Shown piece by piece: positions 31,788 to 61,449 of a DNA stretch of 64,000 bases. This stretch comes from Pontiella sp. (lineage in GTDB: Bacteria > Verrucomicrobiota > Kiritimatiellia > Kiritimatiellales > Pontiellaceae). The notes under the pieces are model-generated. The model did no database searches and was not told where the DNA came from. It saw only the letters and a list, made by a program, of their open reading frames with translations. The stretch spans positions 482,713-546,712 of the forward strand of contig JBNKHE010000001.1 in NCBI GenBank assembly GCA_050290185.1, given 5' to 3'. Numbering within the stretch: position 1 is the stretch's first letter; every line of letters begins with the position of its first letter. The position numbers were made by a program, and so were the translations under genes.

Positions 31788-33500
31788 TCACTTAAAGATG
31801 GAATCGAAGCCCATGGCGGATTCGGAGGCGAAGTCGGGAACGGCCTTTTTGCCGAAGCGCTTCAGAAGCGGATAGAGCAAGGAGAGCATGTTGAGGGTGA
31901 CGATGCGGTCAACCAAGCGGTAACCGTGCTTGCCGCGGAACAGGATCCGGATCATCAGGCGCAGGTGCGCGCGGCGCAGCTTGAAGCGCGAAAAGTCGAG
32001 CATGACGGTGTAGCGCGGTTCTGCATATTTTATTTCATAGTCGACCTTCAGTTTTTCGAGGCGCGTAATCATTTCATCGTTAAAATCGCAGAAATAATAT
32101 TCGCGGACGGCGGCGATGATTTCGAAGGTGTCGTACTGGAACTTCAGGTCCTCGGAGGGCAAACCGAGCATGTTGACCAGATCCTGCATCCAGCGGATTT
32201 TTTCCAGCGCCATGTATCCCTGCTGCACGGTTTTTTCGCCGTTGGAGACGTAGCAACGCATAAACTTGCGCATGAAATGGTTGGCGACGATGTGCCGCCA
32301 GTAGACGGTGACCAGCGGCGGAACGCGCAGCCGGCGGAAATAGATCCGGCTCGAGGCGAAGTCCTCGATGTAGAGCAGTTCCTTGATGACCTCGTCGGAA
32401 AGCCGGAGCAGTTCCTGCAACGGTCGCCAATTCGGGTCGGGCCAGTGCGCGCGGTAGTATTGCTGGATGGCCTGGTCCGCGGAGATGCCGTCACGAAACA
32501 GGCGGACGGTGACATAGGCATTGATCTCGTTCCAAACTGCGTTTTCATCGAGCCAGGTGAGCCGTCGGAAACCGCTCCACCCCCCGGTCTGGCACCAGAC
32601 GGAGATGCCGGCAATGTTCTGGCCGACCAGCTTGTTGCGGATTTTTTCGTAGTCCCAGCCGATGAAGGAGGGATATTCGCCGAAGCCTTCGTATTCGCGC
32701 CGCGCCTGGAACTCGATCAACTTGCGGTGGCGGCCGCGGAAAAAGAGCCGGTTGAGCGGAAGGTAGCGGAAGAAGTCAGACGGGCCATGTTTCATGGAAA
32801 TGATGAGGTGGTCGCTTTCCACCCCCCGGAACACCTTGTCGAAGGTCTCAGAGTTCCAGATGAGGTCCCCCACTCCGCCGACGCCGACGCTCCATGTGCG
32901 GAAAATGAGCAGTTTGTCGAATTCCTCGAAGACCGGCAGCAGCGCCTGAAGCATCTTTCTGGCTTGCGACGGCCGGTGGATCATGATCCGGCTATGGAAG
33001 TCGCCCTCCACATCCACACCGTCGGCTTCGCCGATGCGGAAGACGATGCCCGCCACATCGGGGAACACCTCGAAAAGCTGGCGGCAGGCGTGGGCGGCGA
33101 AACGGCGAAGGGCCGGATCGCGCGAGGCAATGCTTCGCTCGATCTCCTCGTTGAAGAACAGCAGATCGGTGGTGACGAAAACCCGCATGCCGTATTCCGC
33201 CGCCGTATCGAAGAGGTCCCGAAACAACAGACGGTATTCCGCGATCTTGTTTTTCAGGCCGTCGGAATAGAATGGAAAGATGCAGCAATGCGCCAGATCG
33301 TCGAGCGTGATGGCGTTGTAGCCGGTTTCCGATGCCTTGCGGCAAAAGGTTTTAAAATCGGATTTGATTTGGGCGCAGCGTTCGGGATCGAGTCCACCGT
33401 CCCGCTCCAGATGCGAAAACGGGGCCTTTGACCAGTTGATGACCTTCTGATCACAGCCCCGGAAAAACGGCGCAATGCCGTCGATGATAAACAGGTTCAT
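31788..33500 (-). CDS. Hypothetical 570 aa protein, possibly a glycoside-hydrolase-like TIM barrel
   Basis: Long ORF 10 bp after the PhoB paralog; GYNAITLDD, FRIGEADG, IFRTW, KHGPSDFF, EFQARREYEG resemble alpha/beta barrel GH-type segments; family not certain. Confidence 0.6.
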   Translation of the reverse strand: MNLFIIDGIAPFFRGCDQKVINWSKAPFSHLERDGGLDPERCAQIKSDFKTFCRKASETGYNAITLDDLAHCCIFPFYSDGLKNKIAEYRLLFRDLFDTAAEYGMRVFVTTDLLFFNEEIERSIASRDPALRRFAAHACRQLFEVFPDVAGIVFRIGEADGVDVEGDFHSRIMIHRPSQARKMLQALLPVFEEFDKLLIFRTWSVGVGGVGDLIWNSETFDKVFRGVESDHLIISMKHGPSDFFRYLPLNRLFFRGRHRKLIEFQARREYEGFGEYPSFIGWDYEKIRNKLVGQNIAGISVWCQTGGWSGFRRLTWLDENAVWNEINAYVTVRLFRDGISADQAIQQYYRAHWPDPNWRPLQELLRLSDEVIKELLYIEDFASSRIYFRRLRVPPLVTVYWRHIVANHFMRKFMRCYVSNGEKTVQQGYMALEKIRWMQDLVNMLGLPSEDLKFQYDTFEIIAAVREYYFCDFNDEMITRLEKLKVDYEIKYAEPRYTVMLDFSRFKLRRAHLRLMIRILFRGKHGYRLVDRIVTLNMLSLLYPLLKRFGKKAVPDFASESAMGFDSIFK

Positions 33501-33510
33501 GGAATCCCGC

Positions 33511-34209
33511 TCAAATTTCCTTCATGCGGTAGCCGACGCCCCGGACGGTTTCGATATACCGTCCGGCGGAACCGATCTTGCGGCGGAGCCCGACAATCTG
33601 GACATCCACCGAACGCTCGGAAATTCCAACATCCCGGTCGTGGGCGGCATCGATGATCTGCCGGCGCGTGAACACCCGCCCCGGCTCGCCCGCCAGCAGC
33701 TGGAGGATCAAAAAGTCGGTATGGGTTAACTCCACGGATTTGCCATCGACCTTCACCGTAAAGCGCAACGGATCGATATCGAGGTTGTGTATGGAAATCG
33801 GTGTCGGCCCCTCGTCGGCCGACTGGACATCGCAACGGCGCAGCACGGCATCGATCCGGGCCCGCAGCACATCCGGACTGAAAGGTTTCGCGACATAATC
33901 ATCGGCCCCCATCTCCAGCCCCGCCACCACATCCTTGTCCTGGCCCATGGCCGAAATCATGATGATGGGAATGGTGCTGGTTTTGGGATAGCGCCGCACC
34001 TGCTGGCAGACCTGTTTCCCGTCCACGCCGGGCAACATGAGATCCAGGATAATCATGTCGGGCAGCAGATCCACCACGTTCAACAAGGCGGTTTCCCCCG
34101 AATCCGCAAGGGTGACCTCCCATCCATCCTTCTCGAGGTTGAACAGAAGCAACTCCTGCAGTGCGAGGTCGTCCTCGACTACGAGTATTCTACGCAACTG
34201 TTCCGTCAT
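33511..34209 (-). CDS. PhoB/OmpR-family response regulator (second copy)
   Basis: Receiver VVEDD, ILDLMLPG, GADDYVAKPFS; winged HTH RSVDVQIVGLR, IETVRGVGY; AAGGAG RBS favours the ATG at 34209 over 34215. Confidence 0.9.
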   Translation of the reverse strand: MTEQLRRILVVEDDLALQELLLFNLEKDGWEVTLADSGETALLNVVDLLPDMIILDLMLPGVDGKQVCQQVRRYPKTSTIPIIMISAMGQDKDVVAGLEMGADDYVAKPFSPDVLRARIDAVLRRCDVQSADEGPTPISIHNLDIDPLRFTVKVDGKSVELTHTDFLILQLLAGEPGRVFTRRQIIDAAHDRDVGISERSVDVQIVGLRRKIGSAGRYIETVRGVGYRMKEI

Positions 34210-34220
34210 AATCATTCTCC

Positions 34221-35690
34221 TTATCCCCGTGTCTTGGCGATGCGTTCGACCTGCTTGAGGTAATCGTTGATGTCATCGCGCGGCTTCAGCTCGTAAGCGC
34301 GGCGCAACAACGGAAGTGCATCCTGGTACTTGGCCTGACCCACCAGCAGCTGCCCTTCATAGAGCTTGGCCTCGGCCTCGTATTTTTCGATGTTGGCGGC
34401 GCGCTCGTAGTAGAACATCGCCTTTTCCGGAAGGTTGCGTCCATAGTGCTGGGCGAGCAGGATCAGGGCCTCGCCGTCGAGCGGGTCGACCTCCACCACC
34501 TGTTCGAGAATCTTCACCACATCCTCGCCGCCGCCTTCGGAAACGGCAATGCGCGCCTGCAGCTTAAGCAGTTCCTTGAGGTTGGTTTCGTCGAGCGCGC
34601 TCTTGTGTTCGGCCACGCGGTTCAGCATGCGCTTGGACTCCTCCAATGCGCCGCGCGAGGCGAGGATCTTGGCCGCGCGCAAGGCCTTGGAAGGATCGTT
34701 TCCGTTGTCGAGCTCGTAGGCGCGCAGATAGGCGTCGGCCGCCATGTCCCAGCGCGACTCGTTGACGTAGATGTCGGCCAGCATGGTCATGCTATCTGCC
34801 GAGGCTTTGCCCAGCGTGTTTACATATTCATAGTTTTCGGCGGCGCGCATCGGCTGCTTTAGGCCGAGATAGGCATTGGCCTGCAACAACCAGAAATCGG
34901 CATTGTCCGGCTGTTTCCGGATCAACGCGTCGCAAAGGCTGGCGGCATCGCCGTACTTCTGTTGCTTGAACAAGCTACGGGCAAGGCCGAGCTGCCAATC
35001 GAGCGTTTCCGGATCGAGCAGGATGGCCTGGCGGTAGGCGGATTCCGCGCACAGGTTGTTCTCGGTGGAGGCGTAGGCGAAGCCGAGCAGACCGTAGGCC
35101 GTGCTGGTGTTCCCGCCGAGCTCGATGGTCTTCGTCAGGTATGGCAGGGCCTTTTCAAAATCGCCGTTGCGGACCAGGATGAGACCGGCGTTCTTGTAGG
35201 CGCGGCGGAAGGTCCCGAACTTTCCGATCGCCTTGTCGTACCACGCCAGCGCGTCCTCGAGTTTTTCCTGCTGGAAGTAGAGGTTGCCGATGGTGAAGTC
35301 GAAGATGGCGGACGAGGAATCCTTCGTCATCTTCAGCAGTTGCTGCATGGCCTTGTCCATGTCGTCCTCCTTGGAGAGGATATCCATGACCTTCTGCATC
35401 TGCTCGCGCTCGACGGCGGTCACGCGCGGCTCGATATCCGCGTTCACGCCGTAGCTGCCGAGGAATTCCTGCTGGAACTTCTTGCTGTCCCAAATGGAAA
35501 GATCGGCCGCCGGGTTTGCTGTTTCGGCCGGCTTCTTGATCCGCCCCATGTCCGGTTCGGCCAATACCTGATTCTGGGCCGCCGTCCCTCCACTGGACAT
35601 GGCCGTCAGCAAGGCATCCATGTCGTCGGCCAAGGCCACGCCGCTGGCCAGCAGGCCAAGGATAATTAGTGATCGTTGCTTATTCATCAT
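34221..35690 (-). CDS. Secreted tetratricopeptide-repeat protein
   Basis: Signal peptide (ALA-DD), repeated TPR-like helices; usual last gene of DUF3450-ExbBD-TonB clusters. Confidence 0.85.
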   Translation of the reverse strand: MMNKQRSLIILGLLASGVALADDMDALLTAMSSGGTAAQNQVLAEPDMGRIKKPAETANPAADLSIWDSKKFQQEFLGSYGVNADIEPRVTAVEREQMQKVMDILSKEDDMDKAMQQLLKMTKDSSSAIFDFTIGNLYFQQEKLEDALAWYDKAIGKFGTFRRAYKNAGLILVRNGDFEKALPYLTKTIELGGNTSTAYGLLGFAYASTENNLCAESAYRQAILLDPETLDWQLGLARSLFKQQKYGDAASLCDALIRKQPDNADFWLLQANAYLGLKQPMRAAENYEYVNTLGKASADSMTMLADIYVNESRWDMAADAYLRAYELDNGNDPSKALRAAKILASRGALEESKRMLNRVAEHKSALDETNLKELLKLQARIAVSEGGGEDVVKILEQVVEVDPLDGEALILLAQHYGRNLPEKAMFYYERAANIEKYEAEAKLYEGQLLVGQAKYQDALPLLRRAYELKPRDDINDYLKQVERIAKTRG

Positions 35691-35699
35691 GTTGCATTC

Positions 35700-36356
35700 C
35701 TATTTTTGAAAGGTGATGGGCACACGCATCCGGAACTGGACGGGCTGGCCCTTGCGCTTGCCCGGTTCGAACTTCCACTGCTTCACGGCCTTGAGTGCCG
35801 GTTCGTTGAACGCCGGATGGGTTGTCTTTTGGACCTTCAGATCGCGGGTGCGGCCGGTCTTGTCGACCACGAACAGGACATAGACCGTACCCTGCATGTT
35901 CTTTTTCGCCAGCTCGCGTGGATAGATCGGCGCGGGCTGGTAGACCACGCGCGGCTTCTGGTCGAGATCGGAGAGCGAGAAGATGGCATCCACCGCTTCG
36001 CCGCCGCCGGTCACGCCACCGAGATCAATCTTGAAGTCGCCGCCGCCAAAGCCGCCGTCGCCCGGATTGAGCGCCAGTTCCAGCTGGGAGAGATCCAGCG
36101 GTTGCGCATCGATTGCCGGCGGAGGCGGAGGCTCCTCTTCCGGCTCGGGCTCTTCCTCCTCCATCGGAGGAGGCGGCGGAGGCGGCTCGAGGTTGGCTAC
36201 ATCCACGGTGCGGATGGTCAGATCCTTCGTCACCGGCTTGGTGATGACCTGCAAGACCGGCAGGATCATGAAGAGCGCCAGCGACACGACCAGCGCGAGC
36301 CCTAAATAGAACGCGTGGTTGGCCAGGGATTTTAAAAATTTAAGCAGGCTGTTCAC
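35700..36356 (-). CDS. tonB: Energy transducer TonB
   Basis: N-terminal TM, Pro/Glu-rich spacer, C-term PIYP...AVKQWKFEPG...VPITF. Confidence 0.92.
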   Translation of the reverse strand: MNSLLKFLKSLANHAFYLGLALVVSLALFMILPVLQVITKPVTKDLTIRTVDVANLEPPPPPPPMEEEEPEPEEEPPPPPAIDAQPLDLSQLELALNPGDGGFGGGDFKIDLGGVTGGGEAVDAIFSLSDLDQKPRVVYQPAPIYPRELAKKNMQGTVYVLFVVDKTGRTRDLKVQKTTHPAFNEPALKAVKQWKFEPGKRKGQPVQFRMRVPITFQK

Positions 36357-36362
36357 TATGGA

Positions 36363-36773
36363 TTATCCCTGTTTCTTGAGGGTCGCGATGCTGACCTTTT
36401 CGGCGCCGGCAAGCTTGGCTTCGTCGATCACGCGGACCAACAGGCCGGACTTGACGTTCTGGTCGGCCTGTACGATGACTGGCACCTCTTCCTTCTGCAT
36501 CATGCGCTTCACCAGCGGCTGCACACCGGCGATGCCGATTTCGCGGCCGCCGTAGACGACTTCACCCTTGTCAGTGATCGCCAGCAGAATACTGGTCTTT
36601 TCCAGATTCACCGACGAGGCCGCCTGCGGCTTGTCAACTTCCACGCCGGTTTCCTCCACGAAGGTGGTGGTTACGATGAAGAAAATGAGCAGGATGAATA
36701 CGCAGTCGATGAGCGGGGAAATATCCACGCCTGCTTCTGAATTGTCGTCGGTGTTGCTTCTAAATCGTGCCAT
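36363..36773 (-). CDS. exbD: Biopolymer transport protein ExbD
   Basis: DISPLIDCVFILLIFFIVTTTF, VIVQAD. Confidence 0.93.
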   Translation of the reverse strand: MARFRSNTDDNSEAGVDISPLIDCVFILLIFFIVTTTFVEETGVEVDKPQAASSVNLEKTSILLAITDKGEVVYGGREIGIAGVQPLVKRMMQKEEVPVIVQADQNVKSGLLVRVIDEAKLAGAEKVSIATLKKQG

Positions 36774-36812
36774 GTTGAACTCCGTGATGAGTGATACGTG
36801 AGGCGTGACTGA

Positions 36813-37436
36813 TCATGCCGCCTCAGATTTTTTCTGCTGTTTGTAAAGTCGCTGCGTGCAGACGGTCTGCAAGTGGGCGAGGAAGGCCTTGTATTGTTCG
36901 TGCTCGCGCGCCAGCTTGTACTGAAAGACGATGCCGGGAAGCGCGATGAGCAGGCCGGTTTCGGTGGTGATCAACGCTTCGGAAATACCGCTGGCCACCA
37001 TGCCCATGGTTTTGTCGCCGCCCGAGCCCGAAGCCAGCGCGGCGAACGTGGAGAGCATGCCGGTCACGGTGCCCAGCAGCCCAAGCAACGGCGCCACGCT
37101 CACGCAGGTCTGCATGACCTTCAGGTCACGGTCGAACGGGGCGATCTCGGTCTGGTGGAGTTCGTCGAAAAAGATTCCGATCTCCTTCAGCGAGGTCGCC
37201 CCCATCACAAACTGGATCATCCGGCCAACCGGACCGCGGCCCTTTTCCGGGTTCTTGGTCCATTGCTTCATTTTCTTTTCCGTGACGTAGAGATACCCTT
37301 TGCCCCGGATGCGGAAAAAGATGCTGTGTCCGAGGTAGAAGATGACCACGGCGTCGAACGCCAGGGCGATCATCCCCCACCCGCCTGAAGACCAGATCTC
37401 CAGGGCCTGCTGCCAAATTGACGTTGTTTCTTCCAT
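36813..37436 (-). CDS. exbB: MotA/TolQ/ExbB proton channel protein
   Basis: APLLGLLGTVTGM, GISEALITTETGL. Confidence 0.92.
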   Translation of the reverse strand: MEETTSIWQQALEIWSSGGWGMIALAFDAVVIFYLGHSIFFRIRGKGYLYVTEKKMKQWTKNPEKGRGPVGRMIQFVMGATSLKEIGIFFDELHQTEIAPFDRDLKVMQTCVSVAPLLGLLGTVTGMLSTFAALASGSGGDKTMGMVASGISEALITTETGLLIALPGIVFQYKLAREHEQYKAFLAHLQTVCTQRLYKQQKKSEAA

Positions 37437-37513
37437 TATGCGTGATCCGTGACGATTGAGACGTGATTCATTCTGCGTAGAGCATGTCTATGTTCAGTGT
37501 TCATCCGTGGCCG

Positions 37514-38893
37514 CTACGCTTCTTGAGGTGCGGTGCGCGTGGCGCGGTTCATGAACAGGATGGCGACCTGCTCCATGCGGTCGGTTATGCTCCGGGCCTT
37601 GCGCGAGAGAAAGGCATGGAGCACCAGCGCGAAGATCGCCACAACCAGTCCCAGTTCGGTGGTGATCAACGCTTCGGAGATCCCGCCGGAGAGCGTCTTC
37701 ACATCGCCTGAACCAAACACCGTGATCAGCTTGAAGGTGTTGATGATGCCGGTCACGGTACCCAGCAGACCCAGCAACGGAGCAGACGACGCACAGACCG
37801 CGATGAACGAGGTCCACTTGTTCACGCTCAGGCGCGTCGTGAGCATTTCCTCGTACATCACTTCTTCGACCAGATCCTTCGGCTCGTCGATATGCTCGAT
37901 GCCCGCCTTCAACATCGCGGCGGTCGGGCCCTTGATTTTGGCAACCTTCTCCAGCGCCTGGGCATGGTTGTTGTGCAGCATGGCCTTGAGCAGCGGCTGG
38001 ATCTCCTTTTCGGGCGGCATCGGAATCAGGGAAAGCTGGATCCACTTTCCGCAGGCAACGATTACGGCAAGGATGAACATGCCGACGATGGGATAGACCA
38101 CAAAACCGCCTTTTTTCAGATGCTCGCCGAGCGTTTCATGGGTTTCCTCGATCTTGCGCGCATTGCCCAGGCTCGGATCGAACGGAAAGATGCCCGACTT
38201 GTTTTTGACAGTGTCGCGTACCAGCTGCGCATTCGCGCCGTCGGAAAACGGCATCACGGTCGGCTCAAGCGAACCCAGGCGTTGCTCGGCGATGCCGGCC
38301 ATCGAACCGTCATCGGAAGCAAACAAGGCCACCGGACCAACGAGGGCGAAGTTCCCCTGCTTGACCAAGCCATCCTCGCCCGCCGCACTGCCGGCAAAGG
38401 CGGTCCCGCCGACCGCGTCCCGAAGACGCTTGATGGACGCTTCGACCAACGAGGTTTGCTTGATGAAGATTTCCTCGTCGGACAGGTTGGTATTGTCGGG
38501 GGCCAACACAGCGGTATCGATGACCTCCTTGTACTGGTCCAGTTCGGCAATGTGCAGGCGCGTCTGGAAGTTGCGGATGTATTCGCCGAGCAGGTTCGAG
38601 ATGTAGCTCTTTTCCCCCTGGCGCGACTTGATCTCGGAGCGCAGGTTGTTGAGATCGAGGTTGCGGCTGTCGAGCTGGCGCTGCACCCTCTGGTTCTCGA
38701 GGCGCACTTCCATGACCTCGTCTTCAAGGGCGTTGAGGCCTTTCACCATCGGCAGCTTTTCCTTGGCGATGTCCGCGCGGACCTTCGAAAGCTCCTGCAG
38801 GCTGTTTTCCAGTTTGGTCTCCATGTCGGCCGATTGCGCAAACGCACCTCCGGCACACAGCAATAGTAAAGTGATCGTATGCTTCATTTTCAT
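37514..38893 (-). CDS. Long ExbB-family (TtpC-like) protein with periplasmic coiled coil
   Basis: Signal peptide, coiled coil, FDPSLG, APLLGLLGTVTGIINTF, GGISEALITTELGL. Confidence 0.88.
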   Translation of the reverse strand: MKMKHTITLLLLCAGGAFAQSADMETKLENSLQELSKVRADIAKEKLPMVKGLNALEDEVMEVRLENQRVQRQLDSRNLDLNNLRSEIKSRQGEKSYISNLLGEYIRNFQTRLHIAELDQYKEVIDTAVLAPDNTNLSDEEIFIKQTSLVEASIKRLRDAVGGTAFAGSAAGEDGLVKQGNFALVGPVALFASDDGSMAGIAEQRLGSLEPTVMPFSDGANAQLVRDTVKNKSGIFPFDPSLGNARKIEETHETLGEHLKKGGFVVYPIVGMFILAVIVACGKWIQLSLIPMPPEKEIQPLLKAMLHNNHAQALEKVAKIKGPTAAMLKAGIEHIDEPKDLVEEVMYEEMLTTRLSVNKWTSFIAVCASSAPLLGLLGTVTGIINTFKLITVFGSGDVKTLSGGISEALITTELGLVVAIFALVLHAFLSRKARSITDRMEQVAILFMNRATRTAPQEA

Positions 38894-38897
38894 TTCC

Positions 38898-39647
38898 TCA
38901 GTTCACGCTGACGGGGAGCGGGATGAATTCCGCGACCTTTTCGTTTTTCAAAACGGCGATGGCGTCGGCCACCTTGGGGGCGATGGTGTTGTCGGCTTCC
39001 CACTTCCAGCCATCGGCGTCCGGGTAGCCGTAGCCGGCGATATCGCCCTTGTTGGTGCAGTAGTAGGCGCGGGCATATCCGATGTAGAGGGTCTGGACCT
39101 CAGCCTGGCTTCCGTCGGGCAGCTCCTTCGTTTCGCTCACGACCGTGATTTCGTTGGCGCCCTTGTTCAGCTCGTTGATGATGCCGATCACGTTCTGGTA
39201 GCGTTCGGAGAGCGACAGGTCGGTTTCCTCCGTCTTGGGAATGCGCTGGCTCAGCGGCTTGATGCGGTCCTGTACCGGCGACGGCAACGTCGGGAGCAGC
39301 GCGAGCACATTCCGTTCAAGAGTGAAGATCCGGTTGACCAACGTGGCAGATGCGTTCTTAAGCGAATCGTTTTCCTCTACCAGATCCTCGCGCTTCTTGT
39401 CCGCGCCGGTAATCAGCGACTGCGTCTCGTGGATCTTCTGCGAAAGCGTGTCCCGCTCGGAGCGGACGAGATCGATGCGGTCGCCGAGCATTTCGCGCTC
39501 CAGTTCCCACGTCTGCTTCTCCTCGGAGATCAGCTTGCGGGTTTCCACCCACTTCGAAAGCATCTCCTTGGTGCGATCCAGCTCCTGCGCCTGCACACAG
39601 GCCGCCGCGCCGGAAATGGCCAAAATCATCAGTAATTGTCTTTTCAT
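38898..39647 (-). CDS. DUF3450-like periplasmic coiled-coil protein
   Basis: Signal peptide, coiled coil, SLSERY, TLYIG...YY, W.W, ends PLPV; position between the TBDR and ExbB genes. Confidence 0.75.
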   Translation of the reverse strand: MKRQLLMILAISGAAACVQAQELDRTKEMLSKWVETRKLISEEKQTWELEREMLGDRIDLVRSERDTLSQKIHETQSLITGADKKREDLVEENDSLKNASATLVNRIFTLERNVLALLPTLPSPVQDRIKPLSQRIPKTEETDLSLSERYQNVIGIINELNKGANEITVVSETKELPDGSQAEVQTLYIGYARAYYCTNKGDIAGYGYPDADGWKWEADNTIAPKVADAIAVLKNEKVAEFIPLPVSVN

Positions 39648-39680
39648 GTTTACCTCGGGCTAGAGTTCTATTTTCAGATT

Positions 39681-39718
39681 GTTGGTTACGAGTGAGCGGT
39701 TTGTTAGCTGGCTGTTAC
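39681..39718 (-). promoter_or_regulatory. Candidate internal Pho box upstream of the DUF3450-ExbBD-TonB genes
   Basis: Plus-strand GTTGG 39681, GTGAG 39692, GTTAG 39703, GTTAC 39714: four units exactly 11 bp apart. Confidence 0.6.
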
Positions 39719-42700
39719 CATGTCCCTTTCACCCCCAGGCTGTACTCGATCCCTTTCGTGTAGGACGACTTGACGGTGTCTCCGGACAGGTGCTTGCTCC
39801 GGTAGACCTGCTGGATCTCCGGATCGGTCAGGTTCTTGGCCTTGAACGATAGCGAGAAGTGATCGGTCAGTTTCTGGGAGAGGGTAAAATTGAGTGTTGC
39901 GTGTTCCTTGGCATAGACATCGGGGAAGTATCCTTCGGATATGTTTGCCCCGGCCAGCAGGGCGTCGCCGTTGACGATGTAGAACAAACCCAGTTTGGTG
40001 CCCGAGCTGGCAATCCCGTAGGTGACGTTTGCGTTGTAGAGATATTCGGGAGCCCCCATCATGGCGCGCTTCGGCTCCGGATATCCGGCGCTCGCAAGCT
40101 CAACCGCATCGGCGTCTGAAAGCGTCACCTCCGAATCGATAAAGGTGGCGTTGGCACCGATGGCGAGCCCCTCGAGCGCATCCCAGAATTGTCCCAGCTG
40201 CTGGCGGCACTCGATCTCGTAGCCGGACAGCTTGCCTTCCGGATAATTAACCGCGGTAATATAGTCTTCAATGTTGGCTACATAGCCCTGAGTATATTCG
40301 ATCGGCTGGTCGACCTGCTTCTGAAACCAGGACATCGATACCAGACCGCCCGGATACGGCGCATAATCCACTCGCACGTCCTGATTTTTCAACGAACTCA
40401 TTTGGAGGAAGGGATTCCCCACGAACACATCGCCCCCGAGATATTCAACCTGCTGGATCGGCGTCAATTCCTTGAACGTCTGCCGGGCAACGGTTTCGCT
40501 GTAGGAAGCCCGCAAGGTCACGGTGTCGAGCGGCTTTAATTGCAACCCGTACGAAGGAAGGACATCGGTCTGGTGAAAATCCACATCCGCATCGCCTGCA
40601 TGAAGCTGCGATGCGCCGGACTCGCCCGGCTTGACCCACAGGACATCCTTCTCGGGATTGATCAGGGTGATGGCCAGATCGGTCGATTCAAACCGCGCCC
40701 CCCCGATCAGGGTCAGGTACGGGGTAACCGGCAGCTCGGCCATGTAGTACCAGGCCGAAAGGTCCTGCGAGCCTTCATAGTCCACATCGATGGTTGCGGC
40801 ATACAGGATATCGTTCGGGCCTGGATACTGATCGGTCCAGTATTCGGACCAGGGCAGTTTCGGCCCCGAGTAGGGATTGATGCTGTTATCGGCCGGGTTG
40901 CCGAAGTTGCTGTATGATTCCTGGTCATAGGTGCGTTCAACCGAGTCGCTGAACAAGCCGGTCTTCAGACTTCCTTCCTCACCCGACCACTGCTCGAACG
41001 GAATCTTCAGATTCAGGAAGTATTGATCGCTCTCCTCGGAAACGTCCTTCCACACCCGCTGCAGGTTCCCCAGCGTGGCCGATCCCGGCTTGTCCTGGTA
41101 GTATCCGGCATCCACCGTGTTGGTTGTAGGCGGTGCGCCGCGATAGCCCGGAATCACTTCCCGGTAACCGGGATTCCACAGCGATCCAAACAATCGCTTG
41201 TCGGGTTGCTTCAAAGCAGAGGTACTGTGCGCCAGCGTCCAATCCAGCTCCGGCTTGCCGAAGGAAAACCAATCCCCAGCTTCCCACTCCGGCACGGGCA
41301 AAACATGGTCGCCGCCCAACTGCAAGGTGGAGGTGTCGCGCTCGGTATAATTCAAGGTTTGGCTGCGGCGATAGGGCGCGGCGTTTGCATAGTCGGGGCT
41401 ATCATCCATGGCCATGGGATCGTACCCCGGAACCCGGGAGGTCACATAATAGTCCTTGCCGCGCGTATCCTCCGCCACAATCGCCTTGTCCTCGGCCACA
41501 TGCGTGGTCATGTACAACAGCGACAACGTTTGGTCATCCACTTCAAGTCCAACGGCTGCCAGCCCGCCCCATTGAACCTCGCTGGAACCCTGTTTAATAT
41601 CATAGAGACTGGTTTTGTAGTCGCTCGCAACATTGTTCAACGGATTGTCGCTTCCGGAAAAGAACGGCACCATTTGCCCGTTGCGTACCCACCACTTGTC
41701 GCTCCGCTTGTCATCGGTGTACGAGGCATCGGTTTTGTAGTAGAAGTTGGCCAGGCTCGCCACCTTTACGCCGTCGAAGAACGCCTTCTTGCCGCCGGCC
41801 GTCAACGACCAGTCGTACACGTCGGGCCGCTCACCGCGCGAAGTTCCAACCGCCCCCTTCCAGGTGGTGCCGGCGACTTGCTCATCGCGCCGCCCGTCAT
41901 TCAGCCCCCAGGTGCCAACCCCTCCGCCGGCATACGACAGAAACTCCCCATCGTCCGGCCATGAGTTTTTGTATTTCGATCCGATCGAAAATTTCAGGAG
42001 CCCATCCTCCGGCATGCTCTTGAGCACCACGTTGACCGACCCTCCGGAAGCATCGCCCTGCTGATCGGGCACGAAGGTCTTCGTAACCTGCACGCTTTCA
42101 ATCAGGGCACTGGGAAACTGGTCGAGCTGGACGGCGCGCTTGTCGGGATCGGCCGATGGCAGACGTACCCCATTCATCAGCGACACCACATAGCGGTCCG
42201 GCAAGCCGCGCACCACCGCATACTTGCCATCCTGCACAGTCGTGCCCGACACGAGGCTCAATGCCTGCGCCGCATCGGATACGCCGGCCTGGCCCATCAT
42301 ATCGGCACCGACCGAATCCATCAAAGCCGAGCTTTCCAAGCGCAGGTTGAGCAAGCCGATTTCCGACGCCCCCCCGAGCTGGATGTCGCGTACGACCAGT
42401 TCGTCCATATCCTCGTATTCGCCCGCCATTAGCGCATCGATTTCGGCCAGTTGCCCGGCACTGACCACGACTTGCGGCTTGGTCAGCCGCGTGTAGCCCG
42501 ACTTGCTGAAAAGCAGCGTATAGGCACCCGGCTCCACCCCTTCGAAGTAAAAGCTTCCGGCATCACCGGTTTGCGTCTCCTGCCCAGTTTCCGAAACACG
42601 GATCTTCACGCCGGGGAGCGGCACCTCAAAATCCGAATCGGTGACCGTGCCGCGTATACCGCCCAGTTGGGCATAGCTCCCTGCAGCAACCAGCCACAGA

Positions 42701-42738
42701 GCCGTGGGAAGCAACCATTTAAAAGCTCGTGTTACCAT
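39715..42738 (-). CDS. TonB-dependent receptor
   Basis: Signal peptide, N-terminal carboxypeptidase-regulatory-like domain, plug (VVRGLPDRY...VQLDQFPSALIESVQVTKT), beta-barrel with KNLTD and terminal aromatic W. Confidence 0.93.
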   Translation of the reverse strand: MVTRAFKWLLPTALWLVAAGSYAQLGGIRGTVTDSDFEVPLPGVKIRVSETGQETQTGDAGSFYFEGVEPGAYTLLFSKSGYTRLTKPQVVVSAGQLAEIDALMAGEYEDMDELVVRDIQLGGASEIGLLNLRLESSALMDSVGADMMGQAGVSDAAQALSLVSGTTVQDGKYAVVRGLPDRYVVSLMNGVRLPSADPDKRAVQLDQFPSALIESVQVTKTFVPDQQGDASGGSVNVVLKSMPEDGLLKFSIGSKYKNSWPDDGEFLSYAGGGVGTWGLNDGRRDEQVAGTTWKGAVGTSRGERPDVYDWSLTAGGKKAFFDGVKVASLANFYYKTDASYTDDKRSDKWWVRNGQMVPFFSGSDNPLNNVASDYKTSLYDIKQGSSEVQWGGLAAVGLEVDDQTLSLLYMTTHVAEDKAIVAEDTRGKDYYVTSRVPGYDPMAMDDSPDYANAAPYRRSQTLNYTERDTSTLQLGGDHVLPVPEWEAGDWFSFGKPELDWTLAHSTSALKQPDKRLFGSLWNPGYREVIPGYRGAPPTTNTVDAGYYQDKPGSATLGNLQRVWKDVSEESDQYFLNLKIPFEQWSGEEGSLKTGLFSDSVERTYDQESYSNFGNPADNSINPYSGPKLPWSEYWTDQYPGPNDILYAATIDVDYEGSQDLSAWYYMAELPVTPYLTLIGGARFESTDLAITLINPEKDVLWVKPGESGASQLHAGDADVDFHQTDVLPSYGLQLKPLDTVTLRASYSETVARQTFKELTPIQQVEYLGGDVFVGNPFLQMSSLKNQDVRVDYAPYPGGLVSMSWFQKQVDQPIEYTQGYVANIEDYITAVNYPEGKLSGYEIECRQQLGQFWDALEGLAIGANATFIDSEVTLSDADAVELASAGYPEPKRAMMGAPEYLYNANVTYGIASSGTKLGLFYIVNGDALLAGANISEGYFPDVYAKEHATLNFTLSQKLTDHFSLSFKAKNLTDPEIQQVYRSKHLSGDTVKSSYTKGIEYSLGVKGTW

Positions 42739-43934
42739 GGATCTCCCAAACCGCTCTTGATTTCATTTATGCGCTTCCAGAGCACCGCATCGGGCTGCAT
42801 GCCGTGCGTAGCCATGGAAAGTAGAATCTGGCAAAGGTCTTCCGCCCGCGGGCGGGAGTTCGTGTTGACGACCGCCTGCTCGACGGCCTGCGCGTAGATT
42901 TTTTGGGCATTCGCTGCGTCGCCGGCAAGGGCATACGCTTCGGCCACGGGAAGGAGCGCTTCCGTTCGGTAGATATTGATGATATCGGCCTTCTTGGCAT
43001 TGAAGATTTCCTGCGCCTCCAGCAACTCGCGCAGAGCCGCTTCCCGTTGGCCGCACTTGATTTCAAGATTGGCAATCCGGGCCAGCACCTTAATGTGGTA
43101 TTCCGCAGGCCATTCCAAACTGTTGACGATCCCGCGGGCTTTCCCGGCCAACCGCGCAGCCTCTGCACCATTATCGTGCTTCAACGCCGAATCGATCAGG
43201 GAACCCAGCAAATCAATGCGGTTGAAGTAAGGGATCTTGTCCCAACCCGATTCAATTTTTTCTTCAATCAATGCACGTCGGGACGCGTTGTCGTAGAACT
43301 GGTCGTAGAGTGCCGCATAGGCGTACAACGCGCTGTCCTTCAGATCGAGGTCGCCGGTGTCCAGTTGCAGATCGAGCTTCCGGCTGTATTCGTCGAATTC
43401 GGCCTCCGTGCAGCGCATCGACTTTTGCAGGGCCGCCGAGCCGGACTCCGTTTGTTTCAGAGAGTTTCCATATTGGGCCGCTTTTTCCATATCGCCCATG
43501 GCCCGCCAGGTCTGGGCCACCCGGACCAAAACCCGTTCGCGGCGCCAATCCTGCGTTGCGCCGCGGGCGGCGATGTCCGCCTTCTCCAGCAACGAGGCCA
43601 CTTCATTGGTATATCCTAGCCCGACGCAGTAGAAGGCATAGTCGGCATACGCCCTGCCCCGGCGCCAGTTGGGAATTTGTCCGGCATATTTCAATGCGCG
43701 AGAGGGCTGATCCAGCTCCAGGGCGCTGTCCACCACCAATTCCTGATAGTGGGCGCGGTCCTTGATGTGCGGCTCCAACGGAATGGCTGTCGCGAATGCA
43801 AAGGCTTCGTCCAACAGCTCGGCCTGGAACGCAGCTATGGGCTGGTCGCGGAGACGTTCCGTTTGCGTTTCGACACAGCCGCTTGCCACGATCAAGAGCA
43901 AGCCCATCCAACATACTTTGTTCAATACATACAT
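42732..43934 (-). CDS. Putative helical-repeat lipoprotein
   Basis: Lipobox LIVASG-C after a hydrophobic stretch; Ala/Leu-rich helical repeats; overlaps the TBDR start by 7 bp. Confidence 0.75.
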   Translation of the reverse strand: MYVLNKVCWMGLLLIVASGCVETQTERLRDQPIAAFQAELLDEAFAFATAIPLEPHIKDRAHYQELVVDSALELDQPSRALKYAGQIPNWRRGRAYADYAFYCVGLGYTNEVASLLEKADIAARGATQDWRRERVLVRVAQTWRAMGDMEKAAQYGNSLKQTESGSAALQKSMRCTEAEFDEYSRKLDLQLDTGDLDLKDSALYAYAALYDQFYDNASRRALIEEKIESGWDKIPYFNRIDLLGSLIDSALKHDNGAEAARLAGKARGIVNSLEWPAEYHIKVLARIANLEIKCGQREAALRELLEAQEIFNAKKADIINIYRTEALLPVAEAYALAGDAANAQKIYAQAVEQAVVNTNSRPRAEDLCQILLSMATHGMQPDAVLWKRINEIKSGLGDPW

Positions 43935-43977
43935 TGATTCCACACTGTTTTCTTACCGCACACACACATTTATTTTT

Positions 43978-44013
43978 GGCAAAAGAGTGGTGGCAGGGAC
44001 GGTCCCTGCCACC
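43978..44013 (-). terminator. Intra-operon hairpin (partial terminator or mRNA stabiliser)
   Basis: Perfect inverted repeat GGTGGCAGGGAC-G-GTCCCTGCCACC followed on the minus strand by ACTCTTTT. Confidence 0.65.
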
Positions 44014-44041
44014 GGGGTTTCCAGAATCACCGGGATTCGAA

Positions 44042-45778
44042 CTACTTCAGAACCACGCGGTAGAATCCGGAGGCCTGCAGATCGGCGTCGCCATAGTTCT
44101 TGTAGGAACCATCACCAACAACGCTAGCCACGTAGGACCACGGTCCGCCGGGATTGTCGGAACCTTCGATCACGTATTCCACGCCGTCCTCCGACTGGAA
44201 TGAAACGACGACACCGTTGGCGATGGACGCAGCCGGAGTATCGCTGTTCATGCTGGTATCGGTCATGCCGTAGGCATCAACGGCGGTCCAGCCGGCGAGC
44301 CAGTTGTAGTGGGGCGAGAATCCACCGCGGTACGGAGCCGCAACATAGAAGCCGTCGGCCGTTTCCGGGTTGGCCACACTGGCAGCGGCATTCTGCGCAC
44401 AGGGATTGATGTTGGTCACCAGTGCAACGCTCTTGCCACCGCGGGTCACGACCGGTCCGCGGGTGAAACTGACGATCGGATCGTCGGTGGTCACGATGTT
44501 GTCCAGCGCCGGATTGCTGGCATAAGCGCCTGCAGTTCCGTTCAGGATGCCGAGCGCAAGCACCTGGTCGCCGGAATCATTTTCATTGACGTAGTTGAAG
44601 AGGCAACCCTTCATTTCAGCCAGGTAGCCGGACGTCTGCACCGGATACATGTCGGCGGCATCGGCATAAACCGAGTTCGTCCAGTTGACGGCCGGGTAGT
44701 TCGAGTAGGCCGTGGTCCACAGGTCCGCGAAAGCGAGCGTACCATTGTAGCCGTAGCCCTGGGCGCCGTCGCCGTCATCGCCATCCAAACGGATAATTTC
44801 TTCGCCGATGTCCATGAAGATGCAGTTGTGGTACTGAACACGGGCACCATCGCGCCACGTGGTAGCGCCATCGCCGGAGAACGGGTTTCCGATTACGGTG
44901 AAGTTGGCGATCTTGGTGGAGGTGCAGGGTTGTGCGTCGGAATCCTCGGCACCGTCATGCTCGAAGCAGTTGTCGCCAAGACCGGAACCCTGGGAGTCAT
45001 CCTTGGAATAGCCCTGAACGATCAGGCCGAACTGGGCCTTGCCGCGCCAGCCCTGGTCGATGTCCATGCTGTCGTCGCCGACATTCCAAATGCTGATGTG
45101 CTTGTAGTTGACCGTTCCGCCCCAGGTTTCAATCCCGTCGTCGACGTTGTTCATGATTTCAACATAGTCTACGTCGGTTTCACGACCGATGCCGCCCATG
45201 GAAAGACCGTTCAGCTCGTTGGCCAGACCAACCACCTTGCCGCCGTAGCGCAAGGAGAGGTATTTGATCGAGCCGCTGTCGTCGTTGTCGTCGTTACCAC
45301 CGTAGAAGGTATCGTTGGTTCCGTCGGCAGTCAGACCTTCCATCTGAACCGTGTTCAGACCGGTTGGTGTCGGCGTGTTGCCCGGACGGCTGCGTACGGT
45401 GTCGGAGTAAGCGCCGATCAGCGCACGGCCCATCAGCGTCAGGTTGCCCCATTCGTTACAACCTTCATGCCAGCTGGTCAGATTGTCGGACGTGGAGGTC
45501 ATGATGACCGGCGCATCCTTGGTGCCGTTGACATAGATCTTGGCCCCGCGGGACACCGCAAGCGATCCACCAACACCAGTCGTGCTTTGCACCAGCGTAC
45601 CCGGCTGGATCGTCAGCGTGGCACCGGCGCGCACATAGATTTGCTTGGTCAGGTTGTATACGTTGTCGGATGTCCAGGTTACCGAATTGGTGATGTCGCC
45701 CGTGACATCCACATTGGCCGCCTGCGCACCCAAACCGGCGGACAGCATGGCTGCCGCTATTATGAATTGCTTCTTCAT
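44042..45778 (-). CDS. Secreted beta-helix-like (Asp/Gly/Asn-rich) protein with C-terminal FYRV-type domain
   Basis: AAGGAG RBS, signal peptide AQA-A, LTIQPGT, FYGGNDDNDDSGSIKYLSLRYGG, NELNGLSMGGIG, DDGIETWGGTVN, GDDSMDIDQGW. Confidence 0.8.
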   Translation of the reverse strand: MKKQFIIAAAMLSAGLGAQAANVDVTGDITNSVTWTSDNVYNLTKQIYVRAGATLTIQPGTLVQSTTGVGGSLAVSRGAKIYVNGTKDAPVIMTSTSDNLTSWHEGCNEWGNLTLMGRALIGAYSDTVRSRPGNTPTPTGLNTVQMEGLTADGTNDTFYGGNDDNDDSGSIKYLSLRYGGKVVGLANELNGLSMGGIGRETDVDYVEIMNNVDDGIETWGGTVNYKHISIWNVGDDSMDIDQGWRGKAQFGLIVQGYSKDDSQGSGLGDNCFEHDGAEDSDAQPCTSTKIANFTVIGNPFSGDGATTWRDGARVQYHNCIFMDIGEEIIRLDGDDGDGAQGYGYNGTLAFADLWTTAYSNYPAVNWTNSVYADAADMYPVQTSGYLAEMKGCLFNYVNENDSGDQVLALGILNGTAGAYASNPALDNIVTTDDPIVSFTRGPVVTRGGKSVALVTNINPCAQNAAASVANPETADGFYVAAPYRGGFSPHYNWLAGWTAVDAYGMTDTSMNSDTPAASIANGVVVSFQSEDGVEYVIEGSDNPGGPWSYVASVVGDGSYKNYGDADLQASGFYRVVLK

Positions 45779-45988
45779 GTAATCATCTCCTTTGTTTTTA
45801 AAACCGTTACGGTCACCCGCAGATTGATTCGTGGTTTGCCAAAGGGCCGGAGACGGCGGCATCTTCTGTTTCTAGCCCGTCCGGCTCCGGTCAAATCCGC
45901 TGAAACGTCAAAGTGGTTGGGTTCGTTTCAATTTAATTCGCCCCAGCGGATTTATTCCCTTTGACGCGGCCCATTTGGCGGGTTTCGT

Positions 45989-46037
45989 GTTTGGAAATGA
46001 TTAGAAGGCGTTATGGATGCCGTTGGGTTTGTGCGAG
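45989..46037 (-). promoter_or_regulatory. Candidate Pho box array upstream of the TonB-system operon
   Basis: Plus-strand GTTTG 45989, ATTAG 46000, GTTAT 46010, GTTGG 46022, GCGAG 46033 (about 11-bp period). Confidence 0.5.
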
Positions 46038-46074
46038 CAAACAGCAAGCGTAATATTATGATTGTATGAGCAAC

Positions 46075-46103
46075 AAAAACGCCCCGTCCGGAAACGAGGC
46101 GTT
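46075..46103 (-). terminator. Rho-independent terminator after the HMG-CoA reductase gene
   Basis: AACGCC..CGT/ACG..GGCGTT imperfect hairpin with A-tract (U-tail on the minus strand). Confidence 0.6.
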
Positions 46104-55113: not shown

Positions 55114-55175
55114 ACCCTTTCAAAACAAGCTGATAACCAGATTCTAACATTTTAGGGATTGTTAGCGTTCGGTAA
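55111..55175 (+). promoter_or_regulatory. Candidate Pho box array upstream of phoB
   Basis: TAAAC 55111, AAAAC 55122, ATAAC 55133, CTAAC 55144 (11-bp period), then inverted TTTAG 55151 and GTTAG 55161. Confidence 0.6.
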
Positions 55176-55193
55176 ATGGGGAACATTGTCGGC

Positions 55194-55892: not shown

Positions 55893-55910
55893 CATCTGGA
55901 ACGGCGGAAC

Positions 55911-57701: not shown

Positions 57702-57748
57702 CAAATTGCTAACATTTAAAGGTTAGCTTCCTGTTAGGTTTTTGCTAG
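57698..57748 (+). promoter_or_regulatory. Candidate Pho box array (convergent direct repeats) upstream of the first Na/Pi cotransporter
   Basis: CTAAC 57698, CTAAC 57709, then GTTAG 57722, GTTAG 57733, GCTAG 57744. Confidence 0.7.
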
Positions 57749-57787
57749 TTTTCGCGCGCATTTATTAACCGAACCGGGGGAGAGAGA

Positions 57788-59488: not shown

Positions 59489-59510
59489 CACAACAAAACC
59501 CTTGTTTCCG

Positions 59511-59542
59511 AAAGGCTCTTCCTCGACAGGAAGGGCCTTTTT
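59511..59542 (+). terminator. Rho-independent terminator between the two Na/Pi genes
   Basis: AAAGGCTCTTCCT-CGAC-AGGAAGGGCCTTT followed by T residues. Confidence 0.75.
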
Positions 59543-59639
59543 CCTTTGTTAGGAGCCCTTGGCGCCAAGCAATACCCCATTATTATGTAGTTTATTCCGG
59601 AGATTTTGATAGCTTGTCGCTCTGAATTTTTAACAGGGG

Positions 59640-61325: not shown

Positions 61326-61422
61326 GAGCCACCGCCAACCAACCGGGATATCCACCGCGGATGCGCTGGGTCTTTCTTTGTGCAAATCCAAGCCAAATCC
61401 TGCACTCATCCATTACTAATAT

Positions 61423-61449
61423 TTAACCCCACCCTCATACTTTCCTAAC
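61423..61449 (+). promoter_or_regulatory. Candidate Pho box upstream of the porin gene
   Basis: TTAAC 61423, CTCAT 61434, CTAAC 61445 (11-bp period). Confidence 0.5.

Follow-up and report, generated by a model that had tools for sequence, protein, structure and literature searches.

A probable phosphate-starvation outer-membrane importer of the ElpS-receptor kind, with its own TonB motor, in Pontiella sp.

Introduction

What is imported by a TonB-dependent receptor that is encoded together with a TonB motor, a PhoB-like regulator and a secreted beta-helix protein? The question is raised by 11 genes in a 64,000-nucleotide stretch of DNA from Pontiella sp. (the window). A sequence-only reading of the window had described these genes as co-oriented and mostly tightly spaced, which was borne out (all 11 lie on the minus strand, with spacings of -7 to about 110 bp), and had proposed that they form a self-contained, apparently Pho-controlled uptake system. 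The genes are as follows.

44042..45778, minus strand, ElpS-family right-handed beta-helix protein of 578 aa; the start is an ATG behind a ribosome-binding site
42732..43943, minus strand, TPR-like alpha-helical lipoprotein with lipobox ASGC; probable start 43934
39715..42738, minus strand, TonB-dependent receptor extended at its N terminus; a homolog of the receptor encoded next to elpS
38898..39647, minus strand, DUF3450 protein, TtpB-like; the only copy in the genome above the Pfam cut-off
37514..38893, minus strand, long ExbB, TtpC-like
36813..37436, minus strand, ExbB
36363..36773, minus strand, ExbD
35700..36356, minus strand, TonB
34221..35690, minus strand, TPR protein in the TtpD position, assigned by position only
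33511..34215, minus strand, orphan PhoB paralog (PhoB2)
31788..33500, minus strand, 570-aa protein with no signal peptide and a fold like that of GH67 alpha-glucuronidases

In the openly readable literature searched, we found nothing on this cluster, on the lipoprotein as an adaptor or on a pho box of Kiritimatiellia. The main text of a 2026 Kiritimatiellia synteny preprint makes no mention of TonB, phosphate, DUF3450, ExbD, GH67 or helix, and the accessible part of a paper on verrucomicrobial phosphate (PMC12872454) contains no proteomics and does not discuss ElpS.

Results

The beta-helix protein belongs to the ElpS family

A link to Caulobacter ElpS had been raised, but left unverified, in the sequence-only reading. 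Direct comparison showed 33% identity over 287 aa (E 8e-27), and a profile match of 132 bits. The Caulobacter protein was identified by a published promoter primer, its lipobox LAGC at residues 17-20 and the gene order elpS-receptor-gspD. The model of the Pontiella protein was a confident right-handed beta-helix of the pectin-lyase-like type (pLDDT 90.6), with Z scores of 15-21.5 to beta-helices, and nine acidic residues (E188, D213, D214, E217, D235, D236, D239, E273 and D275) were kept in 53-54 of 54 sequences, ElpS included. Neither the beta-helix nor the lipoprotein fell into a Pfam or NCBIfam family, no mention of the precomputed label PF28492 was found in the literature searched, and no sequence relative of the beta-helix with a solved structure was found; Foldseek returned weak matches only. 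The signal is of the cleaved type and contains neither a cysteine nor a lipobox, and just one of 120 close homologs and one of 41 copies from metagenomes showed a lipobox-like pattern. The protein is a member of the ElpS family by homology, but it is not an ElpS-like lipoprotein. A C-terminal beta-sandwich tail is common to other secreted proteins of the genome and varies between loci.

In Caulobacter, ElpS (CC0170/CCNA_00169) is a homologous beta-helix with the same acidic ladder, adjoins a homologous receptor (CC0171/CCNA_00170) and is itself a lipoprotein, encoded beside a type II secretion cluster. Both elpS and the receptor gene are reported as direct PhoB targets, and raw counts for elpS were 383-1,317 in the wild type and 291,467-320,586 in a pstS mutant. 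Expression was repressed by phosphate, with no effect of iron or ammonium. ElpS was released from the cell; its deletion left phosphatase activity unchanged and the purified protein had none, but overproduction increased phosphatase activity, and in the parts of these sources that were accessible uptake by the receptor is not demonstrated (PMC2996285, PMC11208175, PMC5172544). Phosphate-regulon control was thus measured for the Caulobacter pair; here we infer it. The Bacteroides BT4056/BT4055 'lid' pair and the Flavobacterium FI, FII and FIII lipoproteins have been placed in the ElpS family, the ElpS/BT4056 family is receptor-adjacent in 621 genera, and Fjoh_0545/0546 lie in a phoBR cluster, with Fjoh_0546 and its receptor induced by phosphate depletion (bioRxiv 10.1101/2023.03.17.533168, PMC8115612). 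The Bacteroides and Flavobacterium proteins are lipoproteins without a reported TtpB/TtpC motor or adaptor, and their link to the Pontiella locus runs through ElpS.

Unlike the ElpS locus, the Pontiella cluster combines a beta-helix that lacks a lipobox and bears a C-terminal tail with an additional lipoprotein as predicted adaptor, six motor genes encoded alongside and an orphan PhoB.

A lipoprotein is predicted to hold the beta-helix

In 43 of 45 informative metagenome loci the lipoprotein gene immediately follows that of the beta-helix, and it holds a constant place between this gene and the one for the receptor. The predicted complex of the two proteins had an ipSAE of 0.83 versus 0.36 for the best control, an unrelated 574-aa protein that still reached that value. 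Of 157 solved complexes 116 reach this mark, as do 2 of 215 mismatched pairs, a rough calibration for which our own alignments were used. At least 63% of the contacts agreed between runs (partner pLDDT at least 83), and the interface was enriched in the conserved residues of the lipoprotein (0.73 vs 0.59, p about 2e-4), with weak conservation on the beta-helix side (p about 0.06). These models predict that the lipoprotein is a dedicated adaptor gripping the first rungs of the beta-helix. A profile search with the lipoprotein matched solely designed TPR proteins and weak natural ones.

Elsewhere, unlipidated beta-helices occurred without the adaptor (in all 21 loci examined in other classes of the phylum, and in one of eight in other orders of the class), and the adaptor is therefore not required for the unlipidated form. 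A loose lipobox pattern was present in 53 of 92 adaptor homologs, and some lack the lipobox cysteine. Such homologs, together with the release of ElpS and a tail that other secreted proteins share, would be expected if the lipoprotein of a Pho-controlled system were a periplasmic export chaperone, or did not bind at all, and the beta-helix acted away from the cell. The lipoprotein gene, however, keeps its place while the tail varies, and the interface is conserved; we regard this alternative as very improbable.

A TtpB/TtpC-type TonB motor is encoded with the receptor

In a 160-aa stretch of the plug region the receptor is 36% identical to its Caulobacter counterpart, and over 307 aa of the barrel 25%; the invariant plug arginines were left aside, as the sequences had been selected on that motif. 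The six genes that follow run in the order ttpB(DUF3450)-ttpC-exbB-exbD-tonB-ttpD, supporting the earlier assignment of a dedicated TonB motor. The gene order is identical to that of the six-protein TonB2 and TonB3 systems of Vibrio (TtpB-TtpC-ExbB-ExbD-TonB-TtpD), in which TtpB is the DUF3450 protein and of which the TonB3 operons are likewise headed by a receptor (PMC6957404). Compared with a Pseudoalteromonas cluster, the motor proteins showed 22-43% identity, with no BLAST match for the TPR gene; the likeness to Vibrio is one of layout.

The same pair with a TtpB/TtpC motor in Pseudoalteromonas, and the published ElpS/BT4056-receptor pair, mean that the core is a known kind of system. The new features of this variant are the predicted adaptor, the candidate pho box, the orphan phoB, the leader RNA and the GH67-fold gene.

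Could the cluster then be an ordinary iron or siderophore uptake system, with any Pho-like sites incidental? In Vibrio, siderophore uptake depends on TonB2, which shares the six-gene layout and is regulated by iron, but TonB3, also headed by a receptor, does not transport iron (PMC6957404). The characterised homologs respond to phosphate and not to iron, and the repeat arrays described below, the core of which also occurs in the pst and phoB promoters, are conserved. Iron uptake is thus a highly improbable explanation. A scan with a Fur consensus was uninformative, with 8 and 10 mismatches in 19 positions here versus 7 and 8 at the two other receptors of the genome.

Repeat arrays and gene neighbourhood point to Pho control

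Outside the gene cluster itself, the window holds a reference pho cluster, the promoters of which define an 11-bp motif. The features considered for regulation are listed here.

55108..64000, plus strand, reference pho cluster: phoB, phoR, two Na/Pi symporters, a porin, pstS and the start of pstC
46078..46103, minus strand, intrinsic-terminator-like hairpin closing the upstream HMG-CoA reductase gene
45986..46073, minus strand, head array of about eight 11-bp units with core CTAAC/CTAAT/CAAAC, candidate PhoB boxes
45779..45970, minus strand, conserved, covarying structured leader with four helices
43989..44013, minus strand, hairpin of 11 bp behind the beta-helix gene; the 96-nt region around it gives z -2.8
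39678..39721, minus strand, internal array of four units overlapping the receptor stop codon, a candidate PhoB-dependent promoter for the motor genes

The operon needs a promoter of its own, because the terminator-like hairpin ends the upstream gene; a sigma-70 scan found no site. The motif had been placed earlier at the operon head (45989-46037) and internally (39681-39718). It is present at both positions, but the head array is longer than was claimed, running from 46073 to 45986. A matrix was trained solely on ten 11-bp units taken from the promoters of phoB, Na/Pi, pstS and pstC. Among the 25 arrays of the genome scoring above 12, the internal array (39721-39678) ranked 7th and the head array (46029-45986) 11th, five of the higher-ranked arrays being training sites or their reverse-strand overlap. 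Locally shuffled genomes yielded 6-11 arrays at the score of the head array; the genome-wide score is not significant and, lying within the chance range, was dropped as proof of binding.

In place, the head and internal arrays each beat all 1000 dinucleotide shuffles of their own region (p=0.001), and one of 13 other upstream regions of the window fell below 0.05. The head array was significant (p<=0.012) in 13 of 14 rows of the genus, the sole miss having just 112 bp of sequence, and in two of seven rows from other families; the internal array was significant in eight of nine genus rows and two of six others. Conservation across 12 aligned promoters showed an 11-bp periodicity (permutation p=1e-4). 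With a core that recurs in the promoters of pst and phoB, the arrays are a candidate Kiritimatiellales pho box. A canonical pho-box scan found no site before Caulobacter elpS, although elpS is PhoB-dependent; the tandem sites that it found upstream of the homologs in Pseudoalteromonas and Sphingomonas are a lead only.

Gene neighbourhoods were surveyed in 46 genomes. A receptor lay within 3 kb of the beta-helix gene in 42 of them, ttpB or ttpD was nearby in 35, and a pho gene was found within 12 kb in 25 (none in the fetched DNA of the other 21), counts to which related genomes contribute non-independently. In one genome (G003) pstS immediately precedes the operon and pstC follows it. Conserved arrays, this linkage and the fact that the homologs in Caulobacter depend on PhoB support the earlier claim of Pho control, and suggest that the importer is probably controlled by phosphate starvation.

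PhoB2 is 55% identical to the main PhoB, with the same recognition helix and acceptor aspartate, an intact receiver and a changed transactivation loop. TIGR02154 was the best model for both (226 bits for PhoB2 and 254.5 for the main phoR-linked PhoB, cut-off 296.2), and PhoB2 grouped with phoR-linked regulators (99/96), apart from the seven other OmpR-type proteins of the genome. It may act as an accessory modulator on the same boxes as PhoB. In five genus relatives with a complete core, phoB2 was missing from its position, and orphan copies have apparently joined the cluster twice independently. Because of this absence, and because the 570-aa gene moves independently, the 11 genes are not the single self-contained unit that had been proposed; PhoB2 and the 570-aa protein are accessory and lie outside the core.

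In the leader, two helices cross (45966-45960 with 45912-45906, and 45954-45942 with 45904-45892), making a pseudoknot or a switch a candidate interpretation. An Rfam search found no family at the gathering score, the sole match (E 0.29) lying on the opposite strand, over the terminator. The hairpin after the beta-helix gene is probably an mRNA stabiliser or an attenuator, which would give a surplus of the first protein.

The 570-aa protein has a GH67-like fold

All 11 best Foldseek matches of the 570-aa protein were GH67 enzymes (TM-score 0.50-0.55, E 7.7e-15). The fold is that of the GH67 alpha-glucuronidases (PDB 1gql, 1l8n) at 12-14% identity, and the match to PF07488 was below the Pfam cut-off (18.9 bits vs 23.5); its profile aligned to no GH67 chain, and catalytic residues could not be matched. 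Other profile matches, mostly to nuclear receptors, were weak (E 0.016 or worse) and were taken as noise. P. desulfatans encodes a homolog of the 570-aa protein, PDESU_00232.

This fold raises the prospect of a glycan system, with the beta-helix cutting an acidic or phosphorylated polysaccharide as a lyase or hydrolase, the receptor importing the fragments and the GH67-like protein trimming them. The nearest folds of the beta-helix are pectate and alginate lyases, epimerases and tailspikes, but at 6-14% identity, and its acidic ladder includes no invariant basic catalytic residue. Glycan binding or hydrolysis was also proposed in the Flavobacterium paper. Against a role in trimming, the 570-aa protein lacks a signal peptide, and its gene was within 12 kb of the beta-helix gene in just 8 of 46 genomes, whereas in 10 of 24 loci a glycosyltransferase, metallophosphoesterase or ppk gene stood next to it. 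We therefore consider a glycan system decidedly unlikely.

The gene is probably Pho-controlled, and it lies more often beside genes that are probably for lipid remodelling. These neighbours encode GT4 glycosyltransferases and calcineurin-like phosphoesterases. In PlcP/Agt lipid remodelling, genes of these types produce glucuronic-acid lipids when phosphorus is scarce (PMC4796936); the identity of the neighbours as PlcP and Agt is putative. The enzyme would belong to the same regulon and probably serve glycolipid turnover rather than uptake.

Discussion

Taken together, we think it likely that the locus encodes a phosphate-starvation outer-membrane importer of the ElpS-receptor kind, with a metal-bridging beta-helix held by an adaptor and a TonB motor of its own. 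When phosphate is short, PhoR-activated PhoB would bind the head and internal arrays, as their conservation suggests, and turn on the capture and motor genes. Its signal and tail suggest that the beta-helix would be exported without a lipid anchor. The TPR-like lipoprotein, by the predicted complex and gene linkage, would grip its first rungs as an outer-membrane tether replacing the lipid anchor of ElpS and leaving the acidic face free. The Asp/Glu ladder may bind a divalent metal, probably Ca2+, and bridge through it to the phosphate groups of organic or condensed phosphate. The cargo would be too large for a porin, possibly a phosphodiester, a nucleic-acid fragment, an inositol phosphate or polyphosphate, with the beta-helix working as a lid on the receptor. 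From what is known of these families, the TtpB/TtpC-type motor would open the receptor, periplasmic PhoA/PhoX would free phosphate, and Pst or Na/Pi carriers would import it. Both phoA and a phoX-like gene are present in this 95.5% complete genome, whereas Pfam models detected neither PhoD nor phytase.

A point against phosphate capture is that the acidic ladder repels phosphate unless it is loaded with metal. The metal could itself be the cargo, the ladder binding Ca2+, Fe3+ or another cation in a Pho-controlled import that loads metal-dependent phosphatases such as PhoX. That the invariant ladder residues are acidic fits this idea, as do the rise in phosphatase activity on overproduction of the inactive ElpS, the service of TtpB/TtpC motors in Vibrio iron uptake and a weak array (score 8.2) 76 bp upstream of the phoX-like gene. 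Yet deletion of elpS did not diminish phosphatase activity, elpS does not respond to iron supply, and phoX is unlinked to the cluster in this genome; we judge metal import unlikely. Returning to phosphate import, a bolder version is doubtful but worth stating: in Kiritimatiellia and some other lineages, receptor, TPR-like lipoprotein clamp and unlipidated metal-loaded beta-helix lid might form a three-part importer of organic or condensed phosphate, with three layers of control, namely a lineage-specific CTAAC pho box, an orphan PhoB recruited twice as a feedback modulator with an altered activation loop, and a pseudoknotted leader as a new ligand-sensing switch.

In two model bacteria, few surface systems respond as strongly to phosphate starvation as the ElpS-receptor pair, which has been reported from hundreds of genera. 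The Pontiella locus offers the nine invariant acidic residues and a predicted partner with a defined interface to work from, and loss of the dedicated motor should yield a cleaner phenotype than in Caulobacter. For Kiritimatiellales it also yields a first candidate for a pho box and its regulon, together with a possible new regulatory RNA and a pointer to an enzyme with a possible role in the turnover of phosphorus-free glucuronic-acid lipids.

The operon and its genomic setting

All eleven genes described in the sequence-only reading were present, and the principal features (window positions) are as follows.

45778-31788 (minus strand): operon encoding a beta-helix protein, a lipoprotein, a TonB-dependent receptor, DUF3450 (ttpB), a long ExbB (ttpC), ExbB, ExbD, TonB, a TPR protein, PhoB2 and a 570-aa protein
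46073-45986: head array of 11-bp CTAAC-type units before the beta-helix gene
45779-45970 (minus strand): leader RNA
42732-43943 (minus strand): predicted adaptor lipoprotein
39721-39678: internal array at the receptor stop codon, before ttpB
33511-34215 (minus strand): PhoB2, an orphan PhoB paralog

The closest named homologs came from Pontiella and Pontiellaceae, placing the host within Kiritimatiellia as a Pontiella-like bacterium. The TonB-receptor barrel is matched three times in the genome, alongside two clear TonB genes and a single DUF3450 gene above the cut-off, indicating that much of the cell's energised outer-membrane uptake resides in this operon. Another cluster, receptor-exbB-exbD-tonB together with ABC-transporter-like genes, lies 11 kb before the window (G000:C1:471081-478291 in the source genome), and no pho array was found there.

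A full pho cluster begins ~9 kb from the operon and runs on beyond the window end. Directly before phoB lies a cluster (48376-55113, plus strand) encoding a PMT-family transferase, an aminotransferase, a GT2 protein, a formyltransferase-epimerase fusion and a deacetylase, which we take from this domain set to be arn-type. In many genus relatives phoBR and the beta-helix gene are separated by the HMG-CoA reductase gene (46131-47336, minus strand), before which no pho array was found. Immediately upstream of the head array, a terminator-like hairpin sets the operon apart from this gene. Elsewhere in the genome, phoA has a phoX-like gene nearby (G000:C8:132835-138398), the latter with a weak array 76 bp upstream. 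In the window, a short, 418-aa NAD-dependent DNA ligase (29276-30532, minus strand) ends after the OB fold.

The beta-helix protein is a homolog of ElpS

Matches to the beta-helix protein in a plasmid collection (26-38% identity) included elpS-receptor-gsp gene orders in Sphingomonas and Indioceanicola, and a Pseudoalteromonas cluster ordered ttpB-ttpC-exbB-exbD-tonB-TPR-beta-helix-receptor. We located the Caulobacter vibrioides elpS locus via the published elpS promoter primer; its 512-aa product carries LAGC at residues 17-20, as the ElpS paper states (PMC2996285). Direct comparison with this protein (33% over 287 aa, E 8e-27) confirmed the ElpS link raised in the sequence-only reading, and the adjoining receptors also matched. 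Caulobacter elpS and its neighboring receptor gene are reported as strongly induced, direct PhoB targets (PMC11208175), and phosphate depletion induces a Flavobacterium relative located in a phoBR cluster (PMC8115612). The beta-helix/receptor pair has been described in 621 genera, with a proposed role as a lid (bioRxiv 10.1101/2023.03.17.533168).

At E<=0.001 the family comprised 8,773 representatives, falling to 2,730 at 1e-30, and no solved sequence relative was found. The protein is predicted to fold as a right-handed beta-helix ending in a C-terminal beta-sandwich. Nine acidic residues, located on successive repeats, are conserved in 53-54 of the 54 sequences, ElpS among them. Calcium-binding pectate lyases offer an analogy, on which the acidic set may form a metal site. 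Six further ORFs in the genome share the C-terminal tail (44042-44220, minus strand), located at the C-terminus in five; it is possibly an export or anchoring tag. Many family members carry tandem repeats of the module (three in Pseudoalteromonas, L059:9109-13197), and some proteins, in which many stretches match, reach 2,403 aa.

Distribution and linkage to pho genes

The beta-helix protein was present in 22 of 41 relatives searched and in 39 of the 301 phylum genomes sampled. Among 46 genomes with fetched DNA (five whose contigs were short were left out, as was one second copy), a receptor lay within 3 kb of the beta-helix gene in 42, and 35 had ttpB or ttpD no more than 12 kb away. A pho gene lay within 12 kb in 25, a count that includes the operon's own phoB2, draws on extra flank fetched where a nearby phoB was already known, and comes from kin that are not independent. 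Linkage nevertheless arises in a variety of ways: through divergent phoBR, an orphan phoB upstream, pstS on one side or the other, or insertion within the pst operon. In two relatives the promoter and leader run directly into the 3' part of the 570-aa gene (L148, G246:C72) or adjoin a TPR C-terminal fragment (L151, G004:C88); the operon was probably lost there through internal deletion.

A lipoprotein predicted to bind the beta-helix protein

The lipoprotein belongs to a small, TPR-like family (92 matches), and comparison with solved structures gave only generic TPR matches. Its alignment retrieved 80 metagenome loci. Where there was enough sequence to judge, 43 of 45 place the beta-helix gene directly upstream, and 41 of 54 have a receptor no more than 1.5 kb downstream. 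The beta-helices at these loci lack a lipobox (one of 41 shows the pattern), with C-terminal tails that are variable or missing; some lipoprotein homologs themselves miss the lipobox cysteine. Complex prediction for the two proteins, whose best control stayed at 0.36, scored 0.83. This mark was attained by 116 of the 157 solved pairs and by 2 of the 215 mismatched ones, a rough guide as our own alignments were used. Runs shared at least 63% of contacts, with partner pLDDT of at least 83. The model supports binding of the lipoprotein to the N-terminal part of the beta-helix, through an interface that includes five of ten invariant lipoprotein residues (P58, W133, P238, N360 and N362) and none of the nine acidic residues. 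The lipoprotein gene was absent from all 21 beta-helix loci in other classes of the phylum (L077-L092 among them); in 13 of these, a secreted 220-300-aa protein with an AxWDF motif, possibly an alternative anchor, follows the beta-helix gene.

Candidate pho arrays and the leader RNA

In a scan with a matrix trained on pho-cluster units only, the internal and head arrays ranked 7 and 11 of 25 arrays genome-wide. In shuffled genomes 6-11 arrays score as high, which makes the ranking by itself weak evidence. Footprinting in place established as real the arrays that the sequence-only reading had noted: the head array reached significance in 13 of the 14 rows from the genus and the internal array, usually placed 74-80 bp before ttpB, in 8 of 9, against 1 of 13 control regions. 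In other families the figures were 2 of 7 and 2 of 6. Conservation over 46075-45985 has an 11-bp period (p=1e-4), extending the head array to about eight units. We infer that PhoB would bind both arrays, because such sites precede phoB, pstS and pstC in the source and related genomes. At the Na/Pi (57695-57765) and pstS (62845-62943) promoters, arrays lie on both strands with inverted units, which may reflect activation plus repression.

The leader (~200 nt) is conserved within the genus, was found in 24 further loci retrieved, mostly before a beta-helix gene, and had no Rfam match. Four helices, two of which cross, are paired in 95% of cells; nine pairs have changed at both positions, a level that none of 500 shuffles reached; these controls overstate support, as the structure was derived from the same 12 related sequences.

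The orphan PhoB paralog

PhoB2 is 55% identical to the main PhoB and retains the acceptor aspartate (D58) and recognition helix, and its transactivation loop is unlike all phoR-linked copies in the order. Changes in this loop left E. coli PhoB unable to activate and raised activation in PmrA (PMC10570014), so the effect in PhoB2 could go either way. The paralog is not a fixed part of the operon: six genomes of the genus have phoB2 after the TPR gene, whereas five others with a complete core lack it at this position. In a sister family, an orphan phoB upstream of the beta-helix gene nests among that family's own PhoBs. A single clade of all cluster-linked orphan PhoBs was rejected (AU p=0.00046; 25 rows, leaving out seven outgroups and three distant rows, with the group designated only once a first tree had been built). 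On the simple reading of these sequences, two independent duplications would have produced the orphan copies; gene conversion could mimic this pattern.

The 570-aa protein and probable lipid-remodelling genes

The 570-aa protein has a GH67 alpha-glucuronidase fold without a signal peptide, and occurs in 29 of 301 phylum genomes, several of which have no beta-helix protein. In 10 of 24 loci its gene is flanked by a GT4-type glycosyltransferase, a calcineurin-like phosphoesterase or ppk, the first two being gene types of phosphorus-free lipid synthesis (PMC4796936). Four relocated copies within the order have their own array (scores 12.8-23.4), and seven others have none. The protein would be a Pho-regulon glycolipid-turnover enzyme appended to the operon. 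A 798-aa glycosyltransferase (26776-29172, minus strand) with a GT4 C-terminus and an N-terminal HxH motif, presumably PHP-like although Pfam assigns no such label, is a probable Pho-controlled lipid-remodelling gene; its candidate array scored 10.3, and those of homologs in four relatives 20-23 (G028, G035, G286) and 5.1 (G135).

Taken together, the proposed Pho-regulated TonB uptake system is real and probably Pho-controlled, but its core is of a known kind: the operon is a variant of the ElpS-receptor system, powered by a TtpB/TtpC-type motor. The lipoprotein is probably a new adaptor, and there are several regulatory leads besides. Our best guess is that the system captures an organic or condensed phosphate through a metal bridge.
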